Assembly (NCBI GenBank): GCA_965214835.1
Contig: CBDCCK010000002.1
Span: forward strand, 96,001-160,000
DNA length: 64,000 nucleotides
Reading direction: 5' to 3'
Origin: Nitrosopumilaceae archaeon
GTDB lineage: Archaea; Thermoproteota; Nitrososphaeria; Nitrososphaerales; Nitrosopumilaceae
In this document: positions 15,161-52,418 of the stretch, piece by piece
Numbering within the stretch: the first letter of the stretch is position 1
How the letters are laid out: each line of letters begins with the position of its first letter
Position numbers and translations under genes: made by a program
The notes under the pieces: generated by a model
What the model was told of the DNA's origin: nothing
Seen by the model: the letters and a program-made list of their open reading frames with translations, nothing else
Databases searched by the model: none

Positions 15161-15230
15161 CTCCCACACCTGCCTGCCTGTCAGCCTACAATAGTAGGTA
15201 ATGCAGGATTTGGAGGCCGCTGTCAGGTCA
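15161..15230 (-). ncRNA. Unknown structured motif X, copy 1
   Basis: TGACCTG..CTCC-AAAT-CCTGC-ATTA-hairpin-CTGACAGGCAG-GCAGG-TGTG-GGAG, following a T-tract. Confidence 0.6.
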
Positions 15231-15314
15231 CGAAAAAATTGGGGTTTGGACCGTCTACATGCGGCCCGTGTTCAGATACGCACAGTTGGGACATGCCGTC
15301 ACATGCCTCCTGCC

Positions 15315-15379
15315 TTCCACACCTGCCTGCCTGTCAGCCCTTTCGGGTATTGCAGGGTTTGAAAACAGTTGCCAGGTCA
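15315..15379 (-). ncRNA. Unknown structured motif X, copy 2
   Basis: Same conserved blocks with a shorter apical hairpin (CCC-GAAA-GGG). Confidence 0.6.
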
Positions 15380-15410
15380 CTAAAAATGTTGGATGCGTGC
15401 AGCCCCGAGG

Positions 15411-15758
15411 TCAGTTGCTCTTTCTCAGATACCCGGCGATCTCCCTGAGAATTGCCGTGATGTCATCCAGCTTGTCCAGCTTGGTGTCGATTCGATCCAG
15501 CTTGTCCAGCTTGGTGTTAATCCGGTCAAACCGCTTGTGTATCTTGGAGACCTCGTCATGTGTAAGAAGCAGCATCGTAATCCCTACGATCGCAGGCATT
15601 ATAAAGACTCCGTACACGGGCCACTCTCTTAGCAGCTCCAGCACGTCAGATTCCCCGCCAAACATGAGGAAGAATCCGAACAGAAGCATGCTTACAAATA
15701 CGACTCCCATCGGTCTTCTGAAGAGGAGCTGTACCTTTGCAGTAACGTGTTTGTTCAT
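15411..15758 (-). CDS. Two-TM protein with LDKLD heptad coiled-coil tail
   Basis: Hydrophobic segments then RFDRINTKLDKLDRIDTKLDKLD; tandem duplicate of 15877..16191. Confidence 0.75.
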   Translation of the reverse strand: MNKHVTAKVQLLFRRPMGVVFVSMLLFGFFLMFGGESDVLELLREWPVYGVFIMPAIVGITMLLLTHDEVSKIHKRFDRINTKLDKLDRIDTKLDKLDDITAILREIAGYLRKSN

Positions 15759-15776
15759 GTTGTTTGTTCCTTCGGA

Positions 15777-15845
15777 CTCCCACACCTGCCTGCCTGTCAG
15801 CCTACAAAGTAGGTAATGCAGGATTTGGAGACCGCTGTCAGGTCA
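15777..15845 (-). ncRNA. Unknown structured motif X, copy 3
   Basis: Ends about 19 nt upstream of the ATG at 15758. Confidence 0.6.
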
Positions 15846-15876
15846 CGAAAAAATGTTGGATGCGTTGCCCTTGATG

Positions 15877-16191
15877 TCAGTCCTTCTTCAGATACCCTGC
15901 GATTTCCCGCAGAACGGCGGTAATCTCGTCAAGCTTGTCAAGCTTGGTGTCAATCCGGTCAAACCGCTTGTGTATCTTGGAGACCTCGTCATGTGTAAGA
16001 AGCAGCATCGTAATCCCTACGATCGCAGGCATTATAAAGACTCCGTACACGGGCCACTCTCTTAGCAGCTCCAGCACGTCGGACTCCCCGCCAAACATGA
16101 GGAAGAATCCGAACAGAAGCATGCTTACAAATACGACTCCCATCGGTCTTCTGAAGAGGAGCTGTACCTTTGCAGTAACGTGTTTGTTCAT
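15877..16191 (-). CDS. Two-TM protein with LDKLD heptad tail (one repeat fewer)
   Basis: Nearly identical to 15411..15758. Confidence 0.75.
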   Translation of the reverse strand: MNKHVTAKVQLLFRRPMGVVFVSMLLFGFFLMFGGESDVLELLREWPVYGVFIMPAIVGITMLLLTHDEVSKIHKRFDRIDTKLDKLDEITAVLREIAGYLKKD

Positions 16192-16209
16192 GTTGTTTGT
16201 TCCTTCGGA

Positions 16210-16277
16210 CTCCCACACCTGCCTGCCTGTCAGCCTACAAAGTAGGTAATGCAGGATTTGGAGCCCTTGTCAGGTCA
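16210..16277 (-). ncRNA. Unknown structured motif X, copy 4
   Basis: Ends about 19 nt upstream of the ATG at 16191. Confidence 0.6.
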
Positions 16278-16312
16278 CTAAAAAATTTATGGTGTTTGAA
16301 GGAACAGGATTC

Positions 16313-16883: not shown

Positions 16884-17555
16884 TCAGCAGCCGTATGACT
16901 GTGCCCACGCTTCTCGCGCGAACTCGCTTTTTGTGCAGAACCTTTCCAGTATCTCGGCATGCCCGGAGGTGACAAGCATCTCGTTGATCGAGACCGCATC
17001 GGAGCTGTAATGACAGATCACCTTTGCTATCACCCTGTCATACGAGCCGCCGGGCTGGCCGTCGTCCACGTCGTATACCGCGACGCTTCCGACCGGGCAC
17101 TTGGAGCTGACGTATGCCGTGGCATCCTTGTACCCGAACTCCCCCCTCTCGGGGGTGTTGACTAGTGCAAGCCTGACCCGCTTGCCCTCAACGTCCAGCG
17201 TGTCGCCGTCGATGATCCTCGTTACCGCACCGGCCTTCAGGCCGATTACCGATGACAGCCCGGTGCCGCTCTGGTTGAGATACACCTGGTGACGCCCAAG
17301 GGGGTCTGCAGGCCTGTCCTTGTCGTCTGCCTGCTGGCTGTCTGGCGTGCTGTGCCAGTTGCCGGATCCGCGGCGGCTTTCTGCTGCGCCTGTGAACTGG
17401 GAATCAACGGCATGGCCTATGCTGTCAACAACGCTGTCCACGCCGCCTGAAACGACTGGCGTGAAATGGGCCGAGATTGCCGGCGCCACAACGATGATGG
17501 CCATCATAAGCACCATTCCGATGATGATGGTTCCTGTTGTTCTTAGTTTGGTCAT
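16884..17555 (-). CDS. Membrane-anchored thermonuclease (SNase family)
   Basis: RIIDGDTL, RVRLALVNTPE, YDRVIA and INEMLVTSGHA motifs; N-terminal TM helix. Confidence 0.9.
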   Translation of the reverse strand: MTKLRTTGTIIIGMVLMMAIIVVAPAISAHFTPVVSGGVDSVVDSIGHAVDSQFTGAAESRRGSGNWHSTPDSQQADDKDRPADPLGRHQVYLNQSGTGLSSVIGLKAGAVTRIIDGDTLDVEGKRVRLALVNTPERGEFGYKDATAYVSSKCPVGSVAVYDVDDGQPGGSYDRVIAKVICHYSSDAVSINEMLVTSGHAEILERFCTKSEFAREAWAQSYGC

Positions 17556-17623
17556 AGACGCCCAAAAATTTGGCGTTTCGGGTCTGCATAGCCCAGTCGG
17601 GCTGACCCAATCCTCAGTATGAC
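17551..17623 (-). ncRNA. Type I hammerhead ribozyme overlapping the thermonuclease start codon
   Basis: GTCATA-CTGAGGA-TT-GGGTC..GACCC-GAAA-CGCC..GGCG-TC-TATGAC. Confidence 0.88.
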
Positions 17624-17673
17624 TGCGTTGAGTGGAAATGAAAACAAGAAAAAAGAAGGGGCGGGCGTGAGCC

Positions 17674-17919
17674 CTAGTGGAAGTCGCATCGCCGGCGGTG
17701 AAAACCGTCCCAGCGGCAGCGGGGGCATGGCAGAATCTCCGGATCGCTCAGTACCCACCGGGCAATCCAGAGATAATCGTACCTGATCAGCCAGCGTACG
17801 GCCATCCGCATGCCGCCCCTGCGGACTGCGGAGCCAAAGCACCTGAACTCCTTGAGGATGTTCCAGAGCACGCGCGCCGAGACGTGCGTGTATACGCTGC
17901 TGTTTTTGCTAGAAGTCAT
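17674..17919 (-). CDS. Small Cys-containing hypothetical protein
   Basis: ATG lies in hammerhead stem I; CPRC...CDFH end shared with 18262..18636. Confidence 0.6.
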   Translation of the reverse strand: MTSSKNSSVYTHVSARVLWNILKEFRCFGSAVRRGGMRMAVRWLIRYDYLWIARWVLSDPEILPCPRCRWDGFHRRRCDFH

Positions 17920-17991
17920 AGACGCCCAAAAGTTTGGCGTTTCGGGCTTGCATGAACCCCTGGAGGGGGCTGGCCCAATCGTCAGTATGAC
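17915..17991 (-). ncRNA. Type I hammerhead ribozyme overlapping a start codon
   Basis: GTCATA-CTGACGA-TT-GGGC..GCCC-GAAA-CGCC..GGCG-TC-TATGAC. Confidence 0.88.
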
Positions 17992-18063
17992 CGTTGAGTG
18001 AAAGGAAGAAAAAGAATGGGTGGGGAGGACTTGAGGATCCTCCCGGATCGAGGAGCGAATGAC

Positions 18064-18192
18064 TCACCGGTCTGCCGGTACAGTACGTCCCAGGTTCCTG
18101 AGATAACATTCGTCCTTGAAATCTGCTATGGCTGCCAGCTCATCGGAGGTCTCAAAGTCCTCTGCTGCGCCTGTATCATAGATGTAATCCAT
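18064..18192 (-). CDS. 42-aa acidic micropeptide (MDYIY family), copy 1
   Basis: MDYIYDTGAAEDFETSDELAAIADFKDECYLRNLGRTVPADR; frame and length conserved across three full copies. Confidence 0.55.
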   Translation of the reverse strand: MDYIYDTGAAEDFETSDELAAIADFKDECYLRNLGRTVPADR

Positions 18193-18261
18193 GAGTGTAA
18201 TGTGGAAATTCTTGCAAAGTGTAAATTGTAAAAAGAAAAAAGGGGGTTGTGACTGCGGCCG

Positions 18262-18636
18262 CTAATGGAAGTTACACCACGTCCAGTACGAGCCCCAGTT
18301 CTCATCTTCCTGAACCCAGACTTTGTAACAATGGGGACACTTCACGTCAAACGGCGCCTCACGAGCCAATCGGAGAACCTCCCGGGTGCAATCCCAGAAA
18401 CGGCGCCATTTGGTTCTCAGGCTACAACCATAGCCATACCAGAGGCGCAGTTCGCAAAGGCGTTCTGCATGGCGCAGGGTACAACCGTGCAGACATGCAC
18501 ACGACTCAGGCCTGAAATTACGGTAGAGTTGATAGCAGACGCGCACCCACAGGTGTGAATAGATGCCTCTTTTTTTCACACGAGGGTATTTTGCCAGTGC
18601 TGTCTTTTCGTCGTAATAGATGCTTTTCGAAGTCAT
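18262..18636 (-). CDS. Cys-rich hypothetical protein
   Basis: Starts MTSKSIYY at the hammerhead; CPHC...CNFH end. Confidence 0.65.
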   Translation of the reverse strand: MTSKSIYYDEKTALAKYPRVKKRGIYSHLWVRVCYQLYRNFRPESCACLHGCTLRHAERLCELRLWYGYGCSLRTKWRRFWDCTREVLRLAREAPFDVKCPHCYKVWVQEDENWGSYWTWCNFH

Positions 18637-18707
18637 AGACGCCCAAAAATCTGGCGTTTCGGGCTTGCGTGAGCCCCTTGCGGGACTGGCCCAATCATCA
18701 GTATGAC
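18632..18707 (-). ncRNA. Type I hammerhead ribozyme overlapping a start codon
   Basis: GTCATA-CTGATGA-TT-GGGC..GCCC-GAAA-CGCC..GGCG-TC-TATGAC. Confidence 0.9.
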
Positions 18708-18790
18708 CGTTGAGTGAAAGTAAGAAGAAGGAAAAAAGAATGGGAGGGGAGGCCATGAGAGGGCCATCCCCGATCAAAGGTTCGAACGGC

Positions 18791-18919
18791 TCACCGGTAT
18801 ACCGGTACGGTACGCCCCAGGTTCCGGAGGTAGCATTCATCCTTGAAATCTGCTATGGCTGCCAGCTCATCGGACTTCTCAAGGTCCTCTGCTGCGCCTG
18901 TTTCATAGATGTAATCCAT
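18791..18919 (-). CDS. MDYIY micropeptide, copy 2
   Basis: MDYIYETGAAEDLEKSDELAAIADFKDECYLRNLGRTVPVYR. Confidence 0.55.
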   Translation of the reverse strand: MDYIYETGAAEDLEKSDELAAIADFKDECYLRNLGRTVPVYR

Positions 18920-18978
18920 GAGCGTAATGTGGAAATTCTTGTAAAGTGTAAATTGTAAAAAGAAAAAAAAAGGGGGGA

Positions 18979-19533
18979 TCAGTCTCTGCCGAAGAGACTG
19001 TTCCATTGTGCCAGGAGGCGACCAAAGACAGGCCACGAATACCCGTCGTCGTGACAAGGATGCGCGCCATACCTTCCAACGAAGAGATCGGCCCATACCT
19101 CGCTGGCAAAACTCTCACGATTCATGAGTCCATCGGCCATCTCCCGATGGCAGTGCCTCGTGAGCGCAGAGAGGTTCATGCCGTGTTTGATGGCGTGCCC
19201 TATCCACTCGGGATCGCCGGAGCGCGGCAGCAGGTTGGCCTCGTGATGCCCAAGCTCGTGGTAGAGTGTGTTCCTGACACACGCGCCGCAGTGCTGAATG
19301 CCGCAGATGGCAATCTCCATTGAGGAAGGGTCATAGTACCCGTAACAGTCAGGTCTCGAATCTTCCACGTAAAGGAGGCAGACGCCGCGCCTCAGGTACG
19401 ACGGTATGCGAAAATACTCCTCACGGATCATCTCGACTTCGTGGACGTACGGGCGCATCTCCGCGCAGACGGACACTGCCGTCTGTGGTTGCTCGCGGGG
19501 TCGGCTATTGAAGTGGTGAACAGATGTGTTCAT
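18979..19533 (-). CDS. Zincin-like HExxH metallopeptidase
   Basis: GYYDP...YHELGH...SEVWAD (gluzincin-type third ligand). Confidence 0.75.
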   Translation of the reverse strand: MNTSVHHFNSRPREQPQTAVSVCAEMRPYVHEVEMIREEYFRIPSYLRRGVCLLYVEDSRPDCYGYYDPSSMEIAICGIQHCGACVRNTLYHELGHHEANLLPRSGDPEWIGHAIKHGMNLSALTRHCHREMADGLMNRESFASEVWADLFVGRYGAHPCHDDGYSWPVFGRLLAQWNSLFGRD

Positions 19534-19601
19534 TGTAATGTGTAACATGGAAAAAATGGGGGATGGGATGCGACAAACAGCCGCATCCGGATGAGGGGAC
19601 T

Positions 19602-19691
19602 TTAGTCCCAGATTTCCCGGTCTTCGGGATCCTCTTCGAACTCGCGGATTATGCGAGGGTAAAAGGGTGTCTTTTTCTTTTTGGAATTCAT
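19602..19691 (-). CDS. Possible 29-aa micropeptide (MNSKKKK...)
   Basis: Short ORF followed by hairpins and a T-tract; identical copy at 21411..21500. Confidence 0.3.
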   Translation of the reverse strand: MNSKKKKTPFYPRIIREFEEDPEDREIWD

Positions 19692-19817
19692 TACTGAAAT
19701 TTCTGGAATCAGGAAATGCCAAAGTCCTCTGCTGCGCCTGTTTCATAGATGTAATCCATGAGCGTAATGTGGAAATTCTTGTAAAGTGTAAATTGTAAAA
19801 AGAAAAAAAAAGGGGGA

Positions 19818-20375
19818 TCAGTCTCTGCCGAAGAGACTGTTCCATTTGGGGAGCAGGCGCCTGTAGGTGTCCCACGAATAGTGGAAACAGCTCCATCTGG
19901 ATCCGTGCCTTCCAACGAAGAACTCTGCAAAGACTTCCCCTGCGAATGTGTGCGTGTCCATCTCGCCGCGCTCCATCTTCTGATGGCAGAACTCAGTGTA
20001 CCACGAAAGGCTCCTGCCAAACTCAAGGGATGCAGCAGTCCAGTCCGGGTGTGCCCAGAGCTTGTGCGTCTTGGAGCAGTGGTGCCCGAGCTCATGGTAG
20101 ATGAGAGACCTTACGCATCTGCGACAGTGCTGCAATCCACAGACGGTGATCGTCTGATCCGTCCAACAATAGAACCCTCCACCTTCCGGTCTGGGCCCTG
20201 CAATGTGCAGACAGCGGATACCGCGCCTGAGATCAGGGCGGACGCGAAAGTACTCCTTGCGGATTATTCTGACAGCATGCTCATGTACGAGCATTTCCTT
20301 GCTGACAGTGAACTTCGGCGTGTAGCGCTCCGGAGAGCGTCGGCATTTGAAGATGTTTGTAAACATGTTCACCAT
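19818..20375 (-). CDS. Zincin-like HExxH metallopeptidase (divergent paralogue)
   Basis: GFYCW...YHELGH...GEVFAEFF; ends WNSLFGRD like its paralogues. Confidence 0.75.
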   Translation of the reverse strand: MVNMFTNIFKCRRSPERYTPKFTVSKEMLVHEHAVRIIRKEYFRVRPDLRRGIRCLHIAGPRPEGGGFYCWTDQTITVCGLQHCRRCVRSLIYHELGHHCSKTHKLWAHPDWTAASLEFGRSLSWYTEFCHQKMERGEMDTHTFAGEVFAEFFVGRHGSRWSCFHYSWDTYRRLLPKWNSLFGRD

Positions 20376-20600
20376 AATGTAGAAAAATCGGGGTATCGTA
20401 GTGAGAGGTCTTGAAAAAACCTGTCACTCTGCGTTCTAGACTTTGGATTCGCGGAACCTGCGGCGGCCGGGACACTTCACACCAGCGCCGGTGCCACAGG
20501 GATTGTTGGAGGTTGTGATTCTGGAAAATCCTGAAAAACTGAAAGAAAAAGAATGGGTGGGGAGGACTTGAGGATCCTCCCGGATCGAGGAGCGAATGAC

Positions 20601-20729
20601 TCACCGGCTGGCTGGTACGGTACGTCCCAGGTTCCTGAGATAACATTCGTCCTTGAAATCTGCTATGGCTGCCAGCTCATCGGAGGTCTCAAAGTCCTCT
20701 GCTGCGCCTGTTTCATAGATGTAATCCAT
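20601..20729 (-). CDS. MDYIY micropeptide, copy 4 (copy 3 at 19709..19759 is truncated)
   Basis: MDYIYETGAAEDFETSDELAAIADFKDECYLRNLGRTVPASR. Confidence 0.55.
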   Translation of the reverse strand: MDYIYETGAAEDFETSDELAAIADFKDECYLRNLGRTVPASR

Positions 20730-20787
20730 GAGTGTAATGTGGAAATTCTTGTAAAGTGTAAATTGTAAAAAGAAAAAAAGGGGTGGA

Positions 20788-21342
20788 TCAGTCTCCGCCG
20801 AAGAGACTGTTCCATTGTGCCAGGAGGCGACCAAAGACAGGCCACGAATACCCGTCGTCGTGACAAGGATGCGCGCCATACCTTCCAACGAAGAGCTCGG
20901 CCCATACCTCGCTGGCAAAACTCTCACGATTCATGAGTCCATCGGCCATCTCCCGATGGCAGTGCCTCGTGAGCGCAGAGAGGTTCATGCCGTGTTTGAT
21001 GGCGTGCCCTATCCACTCGGGATCGCCGGAGCGCGGCAGCATGTTGGCCTCGTGATGCCCAAGCTCGTGGTAGAGTGTGTTCCTGACACACGCGCCGCAG
21101 TGCTGAATGCCGCAGATGGCAATCTCCATTGAGGAAGGGTCATAGTACCCGTAACAGTCAGGTCTCGAATCTTCCACGTAAAGGAGGCAGACGCCGCGCC
21201 TCAGGTACGACGGTGTGCGAAAATACTCCTCACGGATCATCTCGACTTCGTGGACGTACGGGCGCATCTCCGCGCAGACGGACACTGCCGTCTGTGGTTG
21301 CTCGCGGGGTCGGCTATTGAAGTGGTGAACAGATGTGTTCAT
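20788..21342 (-). CDS. Zincin-like HExxH metallopeptidase (near-identical to 18979..19533)
   Basis: Duplicated at a 1809-bp offset; YHELGH motif. Confidence 0.75.
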   Translation of the reverse strand: MNTSVHHFNSRPREQPQTAVSVCAEMRPYVHEVEMIREEYFRTPSYLRRGVCLLYVEDSRPDCYGYYDPSSMEIAICGIQHCGACVRNTLYHELGHHEANMLPRSGDPEWIGHAIKHGMNLSALTRHCHREMADGLMNRESFASEVWAELFVGRYGAHPCHDDGYSWPVFGRLLAQWNSLFGGD

Positions 21343-21577
21343 TGTAATGTGTAACATGGAAAAAATGGGGGATGGGATGCGACAAACAGCCGCATCCGGA
21401 TGAGGGGACTTTAGTCCCAGATTTCCCGGTCTTCGGGATCCTCTTCGAACTCGCGGATTATGCGAGGGTAAAAGGGTGTCTTTTTCTTTTTGGAATTCAT
21501 TACTGAAATTTCTGGAATCAGGAAATGCCAAAGTCGGCGGAGTTATATGGTGGGATAATTGTACAGGAAATGGTGAT

Positions 21578-23172
21578 GAGGGCTCAGACTGCTCCCTGTC
21601 TTCATTGCATCGCAGTGATGCTCAGAATGAATGGTGTCTCATCATCGCCCTCGTTTGTGTAGCAGAATAATGCGGGAATCTAATCGGCAAAGCAGGTTGG
21701 AGTTATATTACAGAATAATGATTCAGGAAATGGTGATGAGGGCTCAGACAACGCCAGATTCATCATGAATCAGACTGGGGGTGTCTCATCATCGCCCTCG
21801 TTTGTGTAGCAGAATAATGCGGGAATTTTCAAAGTCAGAATGGCTGGAGTTATATGGTGGAGTGTGGTACGAAACATGGTGATGAGGGCTCAGATGTCAC
21901 GGCTTTCTTCATAGCCACGACAGGCTCGGAGATTATTGCTGATCTCGGCCCTTTGTTCTTCATCATCGCCCTCGTTTGTGTAGCAGAATAATGCGGGAAT
22001 TTTCAAAGTCAGAATGGCTGGAGTTATATGGTGGAGTGTGGTACGAAACATGGTGATGAGGGCTCAGACAACGCCAGATTCATCATGAATCAGACTGTGT
22101 GTGTCTCATCATCGCCCTCGTTTGTGTAGCAGAATAATGCGGGAATTTTCAAAGTTGGAATGGCTGGAGTTATATGGTGGAGTGTGGTACGAAACATGGT
22201 GATGAGGGCTCAGACAACGCCAGATTCATCATGAATCAGACTGTTGGTGTCTCATCATCGCCCTCGTTTGTACAGCATAATTTGCAGAAGTTTCTGCTTC
22301 AAAGTTGGCTGGAGTTATATGGTGGAGTGTGGTACGAAACATGGTGATGAGGGCTCAGACTGATCTCTGTCGTCATTGCATCGCAGTGATGCTCAGTATG
22401 AATGGTGTCTCATCATCGCCCTCGTTTGTGTAGCGGAATAATGCGGGAATCTAATCGGCAAAGCAGGTTGGAGTTATATTACAGAATAATGATTCAGGAA
22501 ATGGTGATGAGGGCTCAGATAGGTAGCTGTCTTCATTCACGAAGTCAGAATAACAGGCTGTCATCATCGCCCTCGTCTGTGTAGCGGAACAATACGGGAA
22601 TCTCGGCGGCAAATCAGGTTGGAGTTATATGGTGGGATGATAATTCAGGAAATGGTGATGAGGGCTCAGACTGACTCGACCGTCATTGCATCACAATGAT
22701 GCTCCGGATGAATGGAACTCATCATCGCCCTTGTTTGTGTAGCGGAATAATACGAAAATCAAAAGTTAGAATGGCTGAAGTTATATGGTGGAGTGTGGTA
22801 CGAAACATGGTGATGAGGGCTCAGAATGCTAACTGTCTTCATTCGTGAAGTCAGTATAACAGGCTGTCATCATCGCCCTCGTTTGTGTAGCAGAATAATG
22901 CCGGAATGACCGGGTTGGAGTTATATTGCAGAATGATGATTCGGGAAATGGTGATGAGGGCTCAGACCTATAGCTGTCTTCATTCGTGAAGTCAGAATGA
23001 ATGGAACTCATCATCGCCCTCGTTTGTGTAGCAGAATAATGCGGGAATCTAATCGGCAAAGCAGGTTGGAGTTATATTGTGGAATGATAATTCAGGAAAT
23101 GGTGATGAGGGCTCAGATAGGTAGCTGTCTTCATTCGTGAAGTCAGAATGAATGGAACTCATCATCGCCCTC
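21578..23172 (-). ncRNA. Tandem array of 11 box C/D guide sRNAs
   Basis: Each unit reads GAGGGCG-ATGATGA(C)-guide-CTGA(D')-loop-ATGAAGA/ATGATGA/ATGACGR(C')-guide-CTGA(D)-GCCCTC. Units: 21578-21652, 21738-21799, 21884-21973, 22058-22119, 22204-22265, 22349-22423, 22509-22574, 22660-22732, 22815-22880, 22956-23021, 23107-23172. Confidence 0.9.
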
Positions 23173-23271
23173 GTTTGTGCAGCGTAATAATGCCGGGATG
23201 GATCTGTATCTCAATCAAGTCGGACAGTCAGTTGCAGGGGGGTATAATGCTCAAAAAATGGCTGGTTTTGC

Positions 23272-23547: not shown

Positions 23548-24459
23548 ATGGGAAGAAGCACAGAGTCCACGCCGGCCGGCGGGAAGGCGGCATCTCTAGG
23601 AGGCGCCGACATCGCCGTCGGGCTGGACATCGGGACAGGATCAGTCAAGGTCGCGACCAGAAGGCACCGCTTCAAGTTCCCGTCGGTCGTGGCAAGGGGC
23701 CGGGCAATATCCGTCGACGGCTCGGAGCCCGAGTCCGTGTTTGTCGGGGAGCAGGCAATGCGGCAGGAGCACGTCAGGTCCATGCTGCTCAAGACGCCAG
23801 TATACCGGGGGGTGCCGACTGCGATGGACGACTATATCGAGCTGGTGCGGCACGCCCTCGACCTGGTGATCAGGGCCGACAGGAACACGGTCTGGCACGG
23901 GCCGTCAGGATACTCGGAGATGGCAATAGTGGCAGGCATCCCGTACAACTCGCGGGACAGGGTGGAGGCCATAAAGAAGGCAGTGCAGGCCGAGTTTGCC
24001 CCGCACAGGTTCGGCGTGATGTTCCAGGCCAGGGCAACGCTTGAAAACGAGGGGATGAGGGACGGAATAGTGTGCCATATCGGCCACGGGACGACAGAGA
24101 TGATGGCGGTAATCGGCGGGAACACCGCATACGGGGAGACCGTGCCTCACGGCGTGGGAGACGTCGTCATGGCAGTCACGGGATCCAGGACAGGATACAC
24201 CGACCACTCGGTGTTTGCTTCGGGCTCGCAGCTGCTGGCAGAAAACAGGCGCATACTTGCCGGCCACATAGCCGACAGCCTTGAGAAGATAGTCATAGAC
24301 TATCCGGGGCTGGACGTGGTGTTTGCAGGCGGCGGGGCGCTTGTACCGAAGCTGGTAGGCGAGATACGGGTCAGGACGTCGGGGACTGTCAGGACGGCAG
24401 ACGAGCCGGTGTTTTCAAACGCCCTGGGAATGCTGAAGAAGGCGACGGGGCTGTGCTGA
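23548..24459 (+). CDS. ParM/StbA-like actin-family ATPase
   Basis: GLDIGTGSVK (phosphate 1), HIGHGTTE (phosphate 2), AGGGA (adenosine), NALG (connect 2). Confidence 0.85.
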   Translation: MGRSTESTPAGGKAASLGGADIAVGLDIGTGSVKVATRRHRFKFPSVVARGRAISVDGSEPESVFVGEQAMRQEHVRSMLLKTPVYRGVPTAMDDYIELVRHALDLVIRADRNTVWHGPSGYSEMAIVAGIPYNSRDRVEAIKKAVQAEFAPHRFGVMFQARATLENEGMRDGIVCHIGHGTTEMMAVIGGNTAYGETVPHGVGDVVMAVTGSRTGYTDHSVFASGSQLLAENRRILAGHIADSLEKIVIDYPGLDVVFAGGGALVPKLVGEIRVRTSGTVRTADEPVFSNALGMLKKATGLC

Positions 24460-24707
24460 CGCCGCGAGACCGCCGGTACCTGGAGTCCCCGGGATCGCTG
24501 TCAGGCGAGGCAAGGAGGAAGGCAAGGTACAGGATGAGGGCTAGGATTGCGGCAGTGATGGATGATGCGCGGCTGCTCATGAGCAATGCCGAGACGGTGA
24601 GGCGGGAGTTTGGAATCGACGTGCGCGGGATCCTGCAGGACGGGGCTGAGGAGGCGCAACAGGAAAAGGAAGCCGTGGAGGCCGGAGGGGATCCGGATCT
24701 GCTGTAG
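24453..24707 (+). CDS. Small basic protein, candidate partition adaptor
   Basis: Overlaps the end of the ParM-like gene; basic helical N-terminus and acidic tail. Confidence 0.55.
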   Translation: MLTPRDRRYLESPGSLSGEARRKARYRMRARIAAVMDDARLLMSNAETVRREFGIDVRGILQDGAEEAQQEKEAVEAGGDPDLL

Positions 24708-24720
24708 CGGGGATGCCGGA

Positions 24721-25578
24721 ATGCGGGAAATGACTGCCGGATCCGGGGATCGTGGCGCCGGAGGTGCCAAAAAACTTGAGACGGTAAGGGAGAGGGTAGG
24801 CAGGCCGTATTACGGGGATGACAGGGTGCTGCTGTACAACCTTGACTGCCAGGAGCTGATGCGCAGGATAGGATCACCGGTAGTCGACCTGACGGTGACA
24901 TCCCCGCCGTACAACATCGGAAAGGAGTACGAGCGCGTTCGGAGGCCGGAGGACTATCTTGCGTGGTGCGGCGCATGGATGAGGCAGATCTTCGAGATAA
25001 CGGACGGGCGCGGTGCCTTCTGGCTCAACCTTGGGTACTTTGAGCTGCCGGGGAGGGCAAGGGCGGTCCCCATAAGCTACCTACTGTGGGACAGGACACC
25101 GTTTTACCTGATGCAGGAGATCGTGTGGCACTACAGGGCCGGGGTGTCGGCAAAGAGGCGCTTTGCGCCAAGGAACGAGAAATACCTGTGGTATGTCAAG
25201 AACGGGGACTCGTACACGTTCAATCTGGACGCCGTAAGGGATCCGGACGTGGCGTATCCTAAACAGAAAAAGAACGGCAAGCTAAGGTGCAACCCGCTCG
25301 GGAAGAACCCGACAGACGTGTGGGAGATTCCAAAGGTCACATCAGGCAGAAACAGATCGTCCCCGGAGCGGGCTGAACATCCGGCGCAGTCGCCCCTTGC
25401 CGTCCTTGACAGGATAATAAGGGCCTCAAGCAATATCGGCGACCTTGTCTTTGATCCGTTCGTCGGCTCCGGCAGTACGGTTATCTCATGTGTGGCCAGC
25501 GGCAGGAAGGTGATAGGATGCGATACCAACGCGGGATACCTGGACGTGGCCGTGGAGCGGATCCGGGCTGCGGGCTGA
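24721..25578 (+). CDS. N4C/N6A DNA methyltransferase (beta arrangement)
   Basis: TSPPY precedes HPAQSP and DPFVGSGS. Confidence 0.9.
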   Translation: MREMTAGSGDRGAGGAKKLETVRERVGRPYYGDDRVLLYNLDCQELMRRIGSPVVDLTVTSPPYNIGKEYERVRRPEDYLAWCGAWMRQIFEITDGRGAFWLNLGYFELPGRARAVPISYLLWDRTPFYLMQEIVWHYRAGVSAKRRFAPRNEKYLWYVKNGDSYTFNLDAVRDPDVAYPKQKKNGKLRCNPLGKNPTDVWEIPKVTSGRNRSSPERAEHPAQSPLAVLDRIIRASSNIGDLVFDPFVGSGSTVISCVASGRKVIGCDTNAGYLDVAVERIRAAG

Positions 25579-26018: not shown

Positions 26019-27218
26019 TCACAAGTCACTTCCAAAGTCCGAGCTGTTACCCTTTAGTTCCTTTTTCGAGTTTCGCTTTCTGATTGCCGTTGTCGTGACG
26101 TCGCAAAAACCGTAATGCGACATCATGTCTGCATAAATCCTCTCGGTCGGAACTACGGTCCCGTAGAACGTGGAGTTTCCTATTATATAGTGGGCCCTGG
26201 CACCCGGCCTGAGTACGCGTCGCACGGACTCAAAATGCCTCGACATGTCGTCGCAGTACTTGCCCACGTAGTTTGACAGGACCTTCCCGCTGCGGTCGTT
26301 TCCTGCAATGCTGCGCAGTATCTTCCCGACATATTCAGGGATCCACGACCTTCCACCAGTCCAGCCTGCAAGCCTGCTGGTGGCAATTCCCCACGTCCCG
26401 CCGATGGTACGCCAGTCCATCTCGCCTGCATCGCGCCCGCTTGAAAGGTGGCCAAGCCAGTACATGAACGGACGCAGTTCGCGTATGTATGACATTCTGT
26501 TGGCGTACGGCGGGGACGTAATTATGACGTCAAACATGGATGCGGCGTCCGAAAACTCGCGGGAATCCCCGAGCATGACGCTTACCTTCCCGTATACCGG
26601 CCGTCCAGCGCCGGCGATGACAAAGTCCAGGTTACGCAGAAAGACATCCCTCATCCCGGCACTGGACTGCACGCTGTTCGGCGCGTCCTTGAACGACATG
26701 GACTGGTGGCCGAAATCGGCGCAGGAGAGCTGGATCAGCGTCCTGCAGAATGCGACGTAAAGCAGGTCAGACACGCCGCCCCCGGTCCGCATTATCCCGG
26801 TCTTGAGGCGCCTGATGAACATCTCGGCGTCACATGACCACCACCGGCGCATGTTGTGGATCGGGGGGGACGGCTCTGGCTGTACATGTGGCCCGTCTTC
26901 CAGGATGAGACGTCCAGCCCTTTTGGCGGATCTTATCGTGTCTGCACCGTAATGCCCCGTCTTTGCTCTGGCCAGCCACACCAGGAACGGGTTTACGTCT
27001 ATCGTGGTCGCATCATGACCCCGGTCTGCCGCACATAGTGCAGTAGTACCCACGCCGCAGAACGGATCAAGTATCAGACTGCCTGCAGGACACCGTGATA
27101 TGATCTCGTCGACGATCCTGACAGAATATGCCGGGGTAAGACGCAGCCATCCGTGTCTGCCTGCATCCGTGTTGAATTTGTAGGTATAGTCGCTTCTCTG
27201 CTCTAGCGCAGCCATCAC
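26019..27218 (-). CDS. N4C DNA methyltransferase (alpha arrangement)
   Basis: DPFCGVGTT precedes TSPPY. Confidence 0.85.
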   Translation of the reverse strand: MMAALEQRSDYTYKFNTDAGRHGWLRLTPAYSVRIVDEIISRCPAGSLILDPFCGVGTTALCAADRGHDATTIDVNPFLVWLARAKTGHYGADTIRSAKRAGRLILEDGPHVQPEPSPPIHNMRRWWSCDAEMFIRRLKTGIMRTGGGVSDLLYVAFCRTLIQLSCADFGHQSMSFKDAPNSVQSSAGMRDVFLRNLDFVIAGAGRPVYGKVSVMLGDSREFSDAASMFDVIITSPPYANRMSYIRELRPFMYWLGHLSSGRDAGEMDWRTIGGTWGIATSRLAGWTGGRSWIPEYVGKILRSIAGNDRSGKVLSNYVGKYCDDMSRHFESVRRVLRPGARAHYIIGNSTFYGTVVPTERIYADMMSHYGFCDVTTTAIRKRNSKKELKGNSSDFGSDL

Positions 27219-34076: not shown

Positions 34077-35261
34077 ATGTGTCATGCTGATCGTGATTAT
34101 ATGGGCGTGGATGCATGGCATGAGAGGATGGCAGAATGGCTGGGGATGAATCCTGCCCATAGGCCAAACCGCCTCGTCTGCGTGCTTGAGGACGGCGGCG
34201 GGGATGACGGTATACATGAGGACGCCAGGCGTCTGGGGGTCATGGCGTGTGATGTAGGTGACGAGAGATGGATGATGGCGCCGTCCTCACCTGCCGTCAT
34301 AACGGGCACGCATGATGAGATCTTCTCTAGGGCCCTCAACAGGGGATACGGGGTGCGAGCAGACATGTGGAACATGCAGTTCGGACTGCTCAACAATGAC
34401 TGCCTGTGGGTTGACGGGACGGACAGCGGGCTGCACGCAGCCCTGTCTGATCTGCGCAGCAGGCTTCCCACGTTTCGCACGCCGGAAACTGTAGATCCGT
34501 CACAGTGTCATACCCAAGACATTCCGATTCACGGGCTGTTCGGCACCGGTAACATGTCTGACATAGCCAGGTTCATGCCAAAAGACATGATAGATCAGGA
34601 CGGGTCAATCATTTTAGGTGATATATCTGACATAGCCAGGTTCATGCGGAGACCGGTGGACGGCTGGGAAGGGATACGACCGCCGGCAGGAAGACATCTT
34701 GGAACGCAATGGATTACCCTTGCCGAACACCTCTCCATGACAGAGCGTCTGATATCAGACGTGTGTCCTGCAGGCGTGCCGGACATTGGCTCTCTGAGGA
34801 CTGCTGCCAGGTACCACGACTACGGCAAGGCGCATCCGGAGTTTCAGCGGTGGCTCTTGCAGGGGCTCCCACAAAACGAACATGAGTCAAGGGCGGCCAC
34901 GGCATGGGCAAAGAGAAGACCAAAGGCGGCACTTGGCAGGATAGATTACAGTCACGAGATTGCAGGAGCGGGTGCTCTTCTGCGGCTCCACCCAGGGGAT
35001 CATCTGGCCGCATACCTCGTCATGTCGCACCACGGCAGGTTCAGATCAGACATACCGGATACCACAGGCAGTCTTCCAAGAACGGATCTGGGTGACGGGA
35101 TGGTGGCCGACGAGGTATCATTTATGGTGACATCAGAAGGATGGAGAAAGACATTCGGTGGACTCTACAGGAGGTACGGACCGTTCCTTTTGTCATATTA
35201 CGAGGCGCTGTTGCGCACAGCAGACATGATTGCAAGTGATTCGGATGAGCGCAGACAGTGA
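34077..35261 (+). CDS. cas3: Internally deleted type I-G (I-U) Cas3: helicase remnant plus C-terminal HD nuclease
   Basis: PAVITGT..SRALNRGYG..GLLNND is the I-G Cas3 signature but DEAH is lost; HD domain EHL..HDYGK..HE..HHG..LRTAD is intact. Confidence 0.75.
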   Translation: MCHADRDYMGVDAWHERMAEWLGMNPAHRPNRLVCVLEDGGGDDGIHEDARRLGVMACDVGDERWMMAPSSPAVITGTHDEIFSRALNRGYGVRADMWNMQFGLLNNDCLWVDGTDSGLHAALSDLRSRLPTFRTPETVDPSQCHTQDIPIHGLFGTGNMSDIARFMPKDMIDQDGSIILGDISDIARFMRRPVDGWEGIRPPAGRHLGTQWITLAEHLSMTERLISDVCPAGVPDIGSLRTAARYHDYGKAHPEFQRWLLQGLPQNEHESRAATAWAKRRPKAALGRIDYSHEIAGAGALLRLHPGDHLAAYLVMSHHGRFRSDIPDTTGSLPRTDLGDGMVADEVSFMVTSEGWRKTFGGLYRRYGPFLLSYYEALLRTADMIASDSDERRQ

Positions 35262-39820: not shown

Positions 39821-40367
39821 GCTTCAATGGGACCACGACATTATCGTCGCGGAAATGGATGATGGCGCCGTCTTCGCCTGCCGTCATAACGGGCTTCAAT
39901 GGGGCCGCAACTTTATCGTCGCGGAAAGATATAATGCGAGATTTAACACAGGAACTCGGAAACTTGCTTCAATGGGGCCGCAACTTTATCGTCGCGGAAA
40001 GGTCGGAACCATGGGACGGATTGGCGGGACGGGAGGACGCTTCAATGGGGCCGCAACTTTATCGTCGCGGAAAGGTCGGAACCATGGGACGGATTGGCGG
40101 GACGGGAGGACGCTTCAATGGGGCCGCGACATTACCGTCGCGGAAATTCGTGAGGGCCCTGGAAATGATGATGCGTATATCACAGCTTCAATGGGGCCGC
40201 GACATTACCGTCGCGGAAATAGCTTTCTGCATATGCCGTTACATGCATCGTCATTACGCTTCAATGGGGCCGCGACATTACCGTCGCGGAAATTGGGTAA
40301 TGACGTGACTACCATATCCCTGCAGGGCAACGCTTCAATGGGGCCGCGACATTACCGTCGCGGAAAT
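39821..40367 (-). CRISPR. Type I-G-like CRISPR array, 8 repeats and 7 spacers
   Basis: 36-bp repeat GCTTCAATGGGGCCGCGACATTACCGTCGCGGAAAT (two variants) at 39821, 39893, 39966, 40039, 40112, 40185, 40258, 40332; spacers 36-38 bp, spacers 3 and 4 identical; minus orientation ends in ATTGAAGC. Confidence 0.97.
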
Positions 40368-40593
40368 ACTGCAATGCCGACAGGTTCGGCCATTGCCTGT
40401 GCGTGACAGGCATCTTTTTTGTACAGCCCTTGCGTTTTTCGCACCACACATGCCGCGATGGCATGCGTCCTCACACTCACATATAATACATTTTCAAGCG
40501 CCTCCTCACAGCGGTGGTACCCAGGATCCCTCGCATGCCACGCCTGCCGGTGACACCAGAGACATACGTGACGATCTGACGCATATGCAGGAT

Positions 40594-52333: not shown

Positions 52334-52418
52334 CGTGGAAGGCGGGATTCGAACCCGCGGATCGGTTAGAATCAATTGCTTAGGAGACAACCGCTATACC
52401 TGGCTAAGCGACTTCCAC
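52334..52418 (-). tRNA. tRNA with anticodon CCT (nominally Arg) and a long variable arm
   Basis: Acceptor GTGGAAG/CTTCCAC plus G73; D arm GCTT-AGCCAGGTA-TAGC; loop CTCCTAA; variable GATT-CTAACC-GATC; T arm GCGGG-TTCGAAT-CCCGC; TTTTAT box upstream. Confidence 0.88.

Follow-up and report, generated by a model that had tools for sequence, protein, structure and literature searches.

Three paralogous hammerhead motifs with the downstream start codon in stem I at a chromosomal locus of a Nitrosopumilaceae archaeon, and their possible role in leaderless translation

Introduction

The biological roles of hammerhead ribozymes encoded in prokaryotic DNA are mostly unexplained. Archaeal representatives are few, their number being given as 'at least three' in the survey of Perreault et al. 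2011 (PMC3088659). The same survey describes tandem hammerheads that cut the polycistronic RNAs of bacterial prophages during in-vitro transcription, including arrangements of three ribozymes. The stretch of DNA analysed here (hereafter the window) comprises 64,000 nt of contig CBDCCK010000002.1 (positions 96,001 to 160,000 of the forward strand; assembly GCA_965214835.1) of a Nitrosopumilaceae archaeon, the genome of which carries archaeal amoA and is that of an ammonia-oxidising archaeon whose relatives have genomes as small as is usual for marine ammonia oxidisers. Its minus strand contains three paralogous hammerhead motifs, HH1, HH2, and HH3, in each of which the 3' strand of stem I includes the start codon of the next open reading frame (ORF). 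Judged from their sequences, they are probably active type I hammerheads in which UU bulges out between A9 and G10.1.

The three motifs share with the canonical type I hammerhead (RF00163) the full consensus core, the three-way junction, the open stem I, and the G10.1-C11.1 pair. They differ from it in the UU after A9, in the length of stem II, which contains an internal loop and an inner hairpin, in a stem I without a recognisable loop, and in not being scored by the Rfam models. Like the prophage tandem hammerheads, HH1-HH3 are several same-sense copies located between genes of a mobile-element-like region. However, the former are bacterial and in the PMC3088659 account their start codon is not placed in stem I, whereas HH1-HH3 are archaeal, with a cut predicted at position -1 in all three cases. 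The nearest known case would be the HHphage hammerhead of haloviruses HF1 and HF2, reported to cut 13 nt before a start codon, with a transcript 5' end mapped no more than 3 nt from the cleavage site (PMC3088659). It also belongs to an archaeal system, has a core-adjacent insertion, and lies just upstream of a start codon, but as described there its insertion is near C3/stem I, and it is viral and single-copy, while HH1-HH3 have their insert after A9 and are chromosomal and present in three copies.

The type I hammerheads in the 5' untranslated regions of chrysoviruses and fusariviruses (fungal and plant RNA viruses), the cleavage of which is reported to be required for translation (Lopez-Galiano et al. 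2026, PMC13725137), resemble HH1-HH3 in their type, in being without evident loop-loop contacts, and in their position upstream of an ORF. According to that report, they serve cap-independent initiation in eukaryotic RNA viruses and are cut away from the AUG, in contrast to the DNA-encoded, archaeal HH1-HH3, for which a leaderless 5' end is proposed. The layout of HH1-HH3, with the ribozyme upstream, only the 3' strand of stem I left on the product, and a 5'-OH end at the AUG or beside it, is the same as that of engineered hammerheads used for obtaining exact leaderless 5' ends (Methods of PMC11698992). The engineered versions are laboratory constructs, of which HH1-HH3 would be a natural counterpart. 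RiboJ-type insulators are engineered ribozymes of comparable design. As predicted, what distinguishes HH1-HH3 from known intergenic hammerheads is the start codon in stem I, the cleavage at -1, the UU insert, and the chromosomal archaeal host. Our literature search, the scope of which did not extend to the archaeal list in Dataset S1 of PMC3088659, returned no natural ribozyme that makes a leaderless mRNA and no report of a thaumarchaeal hammerhead.

Anatomy of the motifs and the genes that follow them

The three motifs lie within 1.2 kb in the same orientation:

17551..17623, minus strand: HH1, type I hammerhead motif with N7 = G
17914..17992, minus strand: HH2, type I hammerhead motif with N7 = C
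18631..18708, minus strand: HH3, type I hammerhead motif with N7 = U

Read 5' to 3', each of them consists of GUCAUA (the 5' strand of stem I), C3 U4 G5 A6 N7 G8 A9, UU, stem II, G12 A13 A14 A15.1, CGCC...GGCG (stem III), and U16.1 C17, followed across the predicted cleavage site by U1.1 A U G A C. The core (C3 U4 G5 A6 N7 G8 A9 / G12 A13 A14 / A15.1-U16.1 / C17) is complete in every copy, with all 13 conserved positions intact and N7 as the only position that differs within it. Stems I and III directly abut the core, and the G10.1-C11.1 pair is present, but in 3/3 copies the UU insert sets stem II off from A9. In this, stem II departs from the filter given in PMC3088659, by which three helices abut the core with no adjacent mispair or insertion.

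In stem II, 4-5 outer pairs are followed by an asymmetric internal loop, beyond which lies an inner hairpin of 4 bp capped by a tetraloop. In HH3 the outer pairs are GGGC/GCCC and the inner hairpin is UCCC-GCAA-GGGG; the inner hairpin of HH2 is CCCC-UCCA-GGGG; HH1 has GGGUC/GACCC, with U-A replacing the C-G of HH2 and HH3, and the inner hairpin GCCC-GACU-GGGC. Stem I of HH3 has 6 bp and one G.U pair. In each copy the 3' strand of stem I is UAUGAC, the AUG of which (17555-17553 in HH1, 17919-17917 in HH2, and 18636-18634 in HH3) opens the downstream ORF:

16884..17555, minus strand: ORF of 223 amino acids (aa), staphylococcal-nuclease-like, AUG in stem I of HH1
17674..17919, minus strand: ORF of 81 aa, Cys-rich, ending CPRC...CDFH, AUG in stem I of HH2
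18262..18636, minus strand: ORF of 124 aa, Cys-rich, ending CPHC...CNFH, AUG in stem I of HH3

Cleavage is predicted between C17 and U1.1, that is, 17557/17556 in HH1, 17921/17920 in HH2, and 18638/18637 in HH3. The new 5' ends at 17556, 17920, and 18637 would each lie 1 nt ahead of the AUG; the whole ribozyme would remain on the upstream product and the 3' strand of stem I on the downstream one.

The AUGs of the 223-aa and 81-aa ORFs are the first in-frame starts of those ORFs; the AUG at 18636 is an internal start within a longer open frame (18262-18840). The 223-aa protein has a signal/anchor-like N-terminus (MTKLRTTGTIIIGMVLMMAIIVVAPAISA), which begins at the AUG in stem I of HH1 and is followed by a staphylococcal-nuclease-like domain (PF00565, E 5e-5; phrog_452, E 2e-15). 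No family match was found for the 81-aa ORF. The 124-aa ORF is an ORFan: 4 genomes of the genus gave no match to it, and among 5.8 billion clusters it has one relative, 95% identical.

The original prediction, which gave no strand, had described three type I hammerheads with full cores, a variable stem II, and a UU insert after A9, with the AUG of a thermonuclease gene and of two genes for Cys-containing proteins inside UAUGAC and with cleavage one nucleotide ahead of it. Every conserved base, the insert, the start of the ORF, and the cleavage coordinates could be read as predicted in all three copies.

Conservation among the copies and catalytic competence

The core pattern CTGANGA..GAAAC..GTC has 3 matches in the window, as compared to 0.44 expected. 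A type I descriptor (0-3 nt after A9; stem I of at least 4, stem II of at least 3, and stem III of at least 3) matched exactly three times on both strands of the 3.22-Mb genome, at HH1, HH2, and HH3, and the modules are confined to this one locus. With a looser descriptor, ten simulated genomes gave 26 matches, two of which had summed stems of at least 15, like the real motifs, so that about 0.2 single motifs of such stem quality arise by chance per simulated genome. One hammerhead-like motif alone is unremarkable, and the case depends on how the three copies differ; because such a motif is not rare in simulated genomes, we have placed the weight on the conservation pattern.

The frequency of chance matches speaks also for an alternative which we consider rather unlikely, namely that the motifs are catalytically incompetent copies of an intergenic repeat which has been retained in another capacity, for instance as terminator, processing signal, protein-binding site, or recombination junction of the cassette array. 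Their ancestral likeness to a hammerhead would then have arisen by chance, or would have decayed upon the UU insertion. In agreement with this alternative, the copies are paralogues within 1.2 kb, and the conserved upstream U-tract and CACUCAACG reveal other constraints at the locus. However, an inactive repeat hardly accounts for the intact 13 core positions in copies that are heavily diverged at free positions and carry three different bases at N7. Only 2 of 40 hammerhead-constrained columns vary among the copies, and both belong to one compensatory U-A <-> C-G pair (10.4/11.4), while 16 of 37 unconstrained columns vary (N7, distal stem II, and loop III). The Fisher test of this difference (p = 9e-5) is indicative only and gives no strict probability, since HH1-HH3 are paralogues.

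Compensatory changes in stem II, both between the copies and in a related strain, point in the same direction. The inner hairpin is maintained with three different sequences across HH1-HH3, and in HH2 of the related strain the change 17965 G>A together with the loss of 17961 re-forms CCCC-UUCC-GGGG, in which the stem again has 4 bp and a tetraloop. Where the related-strain contigs cover the ribozymes, the cores show no change. The energies also speak for hammerheads, as their fold is within 1.5-2.8 kcal/mol of the minimum free energy, and the minimum-free-energy fold of HH1 is the three-way junction itself. Covariation thus consists of one compensatory pair and the inner-hairpin changes among three paralogues and close strains, stems I and III being invariant. 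The sequences 3' of UAUGAC are unrelated among the three copies, which indicates that three different ORFs receive their start codon from the module.

Several observations weigh against active ribozymes that would release mRNAs at this locus. Besides the chance frequency of single motifs, the three copies, being paralogues, are not independent. The UU insert adjoins A9/G10.1 beside the catalytic core, where it breaks the A9-G10.1 stack, and in minimum-energy folds its pairing partner is G12-A13, by which the core would be masked. No obvious tertiary contact between stems I and II was found in HH1-HH3. Inspection by eye for Watson-Crick pseudoknots that would join the loops of stems II and III to the conserved 5' flank or to the downstream coding region gave none that was convincing. 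Candidate contact sites only are CACUCAACG in the conserved 5' flank and the internal loop of stem II, the last base of which is an A at a distance of 4-5 bp from the core; natural hammerheads are described as making stem I/stem II contacts at such places (PMC2632901).

With Rfam 15, no hammerhead was found in the window at the gathering score, nor at E<=10 in 17000-19500 or in the 96-nt slice 17540-17635, and RF00163 had no match across the entire genome. We do not take this as a disproof, because a clean UU-containing motif of a viral contig, described below, was missed as well; the hammerhead variant with UU after A9 escapes current covariance models. De la Pena and Flores reportedly described, in 2001, natural viroid hammerheads with single extra nucleotides at the junction of A9 and stem II.

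The searches for homologues count on the same side as the Rfam result. A looser pattern (GG..CC for GGG..CCC) had 0 matches in 400 other genomes of the class, a covariance model (R1) run on 40 relatives gave two matches at E ~0.7-1, both without the core, and a stem-I-specific pattern had 0 matches in genome_contigs and 0 in viral_contigs (IMG/VR). The UU/GGG..CCC pattern matched 16 times in JGI metagenomes, where 0 passed the descriptor. Among its 99 matches in genome_contigs, 80 were scanned, of which 4 passed a very loose filter and none was convincing; one candidate of that collection (L126) was rejected after folding. With the patterns and the covariance model used, no homologue was found beyond close strains, and the phylogenetic support is thin. 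The same pattern matched 7 times in viral_contigs, with all three stems present in one match alone (L021):

944-1003 of IMGVR_UViG_3300035696_000158, plus strand: hammerhead-shaped motif with UU after A9, viral contig

This motif, unrelated in sequence to HH1-HH3, has a 5-bp stem I, an 8-bp stem II, and a short stem III. Downstream of it come a terminator-like hairpin and a T-run; it has no adjacent start codon and is missed by Rfam. As it carries the same insert, the UU insert is rare, yet not unique to HH1-HH3, and the existence of a second, unrelated hammerhead-shaped motif of this kind argues against an inactive repeat, to which the want of homologues elsewhere in the genomes, viral contigs, and metagenomes scanned and of an Rfam match lends weight. 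On balance, the sequence data make it quite likely that HH1-HH3 are type I hammerhead ribozymes of a UU-bulge variant.

Read-through transcription and leaderless initiation

The features upstream of HH3 are as follows:

18709..18740, minus strand: U-rich/pyrimidine tract and CACUCAACG, directly 5' of HH3
18746..18771, minus strand: GC-rich hairpin, read from the sequence, between the small ORF and the U-tract of HH3
18791..18919, minus strand: 42-codon acidic ORF (MDYIYETGAAED..., MDYIY[DE]TGAAED...)
18940..18959, minus strand: triple TTTACA promoter-like motif, the middle copy of which begins 33 nt before the ATG of the small ORF

Equivalent pyrimidine/U-rich tracts are located at 17992-18016 (HH2) and 17626-17657 (HH1), and all three copies share the same 9-nt block, CACUCAACG, immediately 5' of stem I. 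Upstream of HH2, a counterpart at 18023-18044 keeps the hairpin, but its stem is of another sequence. Hairpin and U-tract precede HH2 and HH3, and a U-tract is present also 5' of HH1. These U-tracts look like archaeal terminators. The triple TTTACA, which occurs in the same form at 18213-18232 before the second small ORF, is the sole promoter-like signal upstream of the ribozymes. Since this element precedes the small ORF, which is followed by the hairpin and U-tract, the ribozymes would be transcribed by read-through, and the transcription of HH1 is possible only via read-through across the 81-aa gene.

In the host genome, the starts of TTTAWA motifs peak at -30 from the ATGs of 1890 long ORFs (31 counts vs. 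~1 background), and Shine-Dalgarno (SD)-like motifs are enriched at -15 to -9. First genes are, on these two grounds, largely leaderless, and some others use SD. A gene-finder study (PMC6028130) lists Thaumarchaeota, 11 of 11, in its leaderless-rich archaeal group. The three ribozyme-preceded genes have no TATA-like box at -30 and no SD-like motif upstream; the 30 nt upstream of each of their AUGs are ribozyme (stem III and core). A promoter of their own was rejected for these genes because of the missing TATA-like motif at -30. The sigma-70/terminator scan is uninformative for archaea.

A pathway may be envisaged in which every step is inferred. Transcription would begin at the promoter ahead of the 42-codon ORF, and some polymerases would pass the hairpin and U-tract and go on to transcribe the ribozyme together with the gene behind it. 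In the uncut RNA, the AUG would be paired in stem I, with no SD sequence, and hence untranslatable. Self-cleavage after C17 would leave the ribozyme on the upstream fragment, ending in a 2',3'-cyclic phosphate; the short stem I would melt and free an mRNA starting 5'-OH-U-AUG, able to enter the leaderless initiation pathway that the host widely uses. Published systems make each of these steps plausible. The mRNA of Haloferax fdx is described as beginning 1 nt ahead of its AUG, and a structured 5' add-on as silencing a leaderless mRNA (both PMC8241225). The conversion of read-through transcripts by cleavage into mRNAs with a one-base leader is the best explanation at hand, and we regard it as only slightly less probable than its opposite.

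A broader proposal, held with less confidence, is that archaeal self-cleaving ribozymes may act as translation switches, stem I locking the AUG and cleavage opening leaderless entry for a promoter-distal cistron. As parts of the same joint claim, the -1 base would stand in for the triphosphate, the ribozyme would be an alternative to SD for internal genes, and the U-tract, CACUCAACG, ribozyme, and AUGAC would form a portable 'start cassette' fused to unrelated ORFs. Taken together, these suppositions are tentative. If the ribozymes cut as predicted, their role would be to make a translatable leaderless-type 5' end for genes without their own promoter or ribosome-binding site. This would bear on the translation of internal cistrons in archaea that rely on leaderless initiation, on whether archaeal ribosomes accept a 5'-OH end with a -1 base, and on a prokaryotic counterpart to the link between cleavage and translation in eukaryotic RNA viruses.

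On the adverse side of the proposed pathway stand, in addition to the points already listed, the U-tracts just upstream of the ribozymes, which may terminate most transcripts. Given the terminator-like U-tracts, the polycistronic transcript of the original prediction would be a read-through RNA. The leaderless part of that prediction gains from the TTTAWA peak at -30 and from the genes having neither promoter nor SD of their own, and loses by the nature of the 5' end. The predicted product starts U-AUG with a 5'-OH and not with a 5'-triphosphate. In Saccharolobus, as reported in PMC11698992, the 5'-triphosphate mimics a -1 base and stabilises the leaderless initiation complex, its removal lowers the toeprint, and leaderless mRNAs with a 5'-OH form weaker complexes than those with a 5'-triphosphate. 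No Clp1-type 5'-kinase was found. Furthermore, a 2-nt deletion at 18341 in the related strain frameshifts the C-terminal part of the 124-aa ORF that contains CPHC...CNFH, which indicates that selection on this gene is weak.

The same facts are what an unlikely, though not negligible, alternative builds on. According to it, the ribozymes are active but their cleavage serves insulation, the formation of the 3' end of the small-ORF RNA, or down-regulation. The downstream ORF would be uncoupled from the promoter-proximal RNA, the small-ORF RNA would obtain a structured cyclic-phosphate 3' end, and the downstream 5'-OH RNA would be poorly translated or quickly degraded, so that the output of cassette genes, among them the nuclease, stays low. 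In Bacillus, the 5'-OH product of the glmS ribozyme is degraded by RNase J1. The weaker 5'-OH complexes, the missing kinase, the retention of the entire ribozyme on the upstream product, the restriction that the terminator-like U-tracts already impose on downstream expression, and the frameshifted 124-aa ORF all fit such a role. Nevertheless, in a leaderless-type system an internal AUG without SD or a nearby 5' end should be silent in any case and would need no ribozyme to be kept so, and a cut at exactly -1 in 3/3 copies fused to unrelated ORFs would be needless for insulation. On these two grounds insulation or down-regulation is ranked below the formation of leaderless mRNAs. Moreover, to judge from the results for Saccharolobus (PMC11698992), the retained U, a real -1 base, might offset the absent triphosphate.

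The cassette array and its surroundings

The sequences upstream of HH2 and HH3 belong to a 242-nt module, which consists of a T-rich tract, the triple TTTACA, the 42-codon acidic ORF, the GC hairpin, and the U-tract, and is present in three copies (18006-18247, 18733-18974, and 20543-20784) and a truncated fourth (19720-19880), with no copies elsewhere in the genome. The GC hairpin stem sequence differs in every copy. The paralogues of the 42-codon ORF are located at 18064-18192 (upstream of HH2), at 20601-20729 (with no hammerhead after it), and, as a truncated copy, from ~19769. Synonymous/non-synonymous differences in codons between pairs of these ORFs are 6/5, 3/2, and 6/4. A hammerhead and then a Cys-rich ORF come after two of the modules; HH1 lies instead between the 81-aa ORF and the nuclease gene. 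The stop codon of the small ORF precedes the hairpin by ~20 nt, and its translation might influence termination in an attenuation-like manner.

The small-ORF modules alternate with three paralogous ORFs of the minus strand (18979-19896, 19818-20375, and 20788-21531), which contain a YHELGHH motif and a region rich in Cys but are not preceded by a hammerhead. Their sole match, for one copy, is a weak one to the phage metalloprotease phrog_87 (E 8e-5); there is no Pfam match.

In the wider surroundings, a ParM-like partition protein (23548-24459) and DNA methylases (24610-25578 and 26019-27218) are encoded, along with the phage-type nuclease, weak metalloprotease matches, and many ORFans. The locus of HH1-HH3 is a cassette array that resembles a mobile-element remnant in the chromosome.

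Tandem hammerheads in such a region bring to mind a further alternative, in our view very improbable, in which, as happens with retrozymes and viroid-like RNAs, they excise units of 364 nt (HH2-HH1) and 717 nt (HH3-HH2) that have a 5'-OH at one end and a 2',3'-cyclic phosphate at the other and are then circularised by RtcB or by the ribozyme. The remnant-like character of the region (ParM-like protein, DNA methylases, and phage-type nuclease) would suit it, as would the same orientation and the identical stem I strands of the motifs, by which the 5' end of one unit pairs perfectly with the 5' strand of the next stem I, and RtcB is encoded in the genome (E 2e-175). However, what lies between the motifs are unrelated protein genes rather than repeats, the 717-nt unit must span the terminator/promoter module, and no second locus or additional copy is present in the genome. 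No unit joints were found in contigs from 4 runs, which carries little weight as the runs are not recorded as RNA.

An ORF with a Cas3 HD domain (34077-35261, E 5e-6) and a CRISPR repeat (40332-40369; RF01330, 38.6 bits) are located ~15-20 kb from the ribozymes. Together with the methylases and the ParM-like ORF, they suggest a defence or mobile-element island.

The region 21560-23270 (minus strand) is a tandem array of ~10 units of ~150 nt with C-box/D-box-like motifs (ATGATGA ... CTGA). The unit at 21741-21796 scores 45.7 bits for the Pyrococcus C/D-box small RNA family, the Rfam gathering score of which is 45. A dense C/D-box-like cluster beside a cassette array is unusual.

On the other side of the nuclease gene, the region 15193-16287 contains two near-identical small membrane-protein ORFs (15411-15785 and 15877-16218; a 300-nt repeat of 98% identity); between them lies a 47-nt intergenic motif, of which there are four copies. 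A tRNA gene at 52334-52418 (minus strand; 54.5 bits) has a 14-nt insertion in its variable-arm region that may be an intron.

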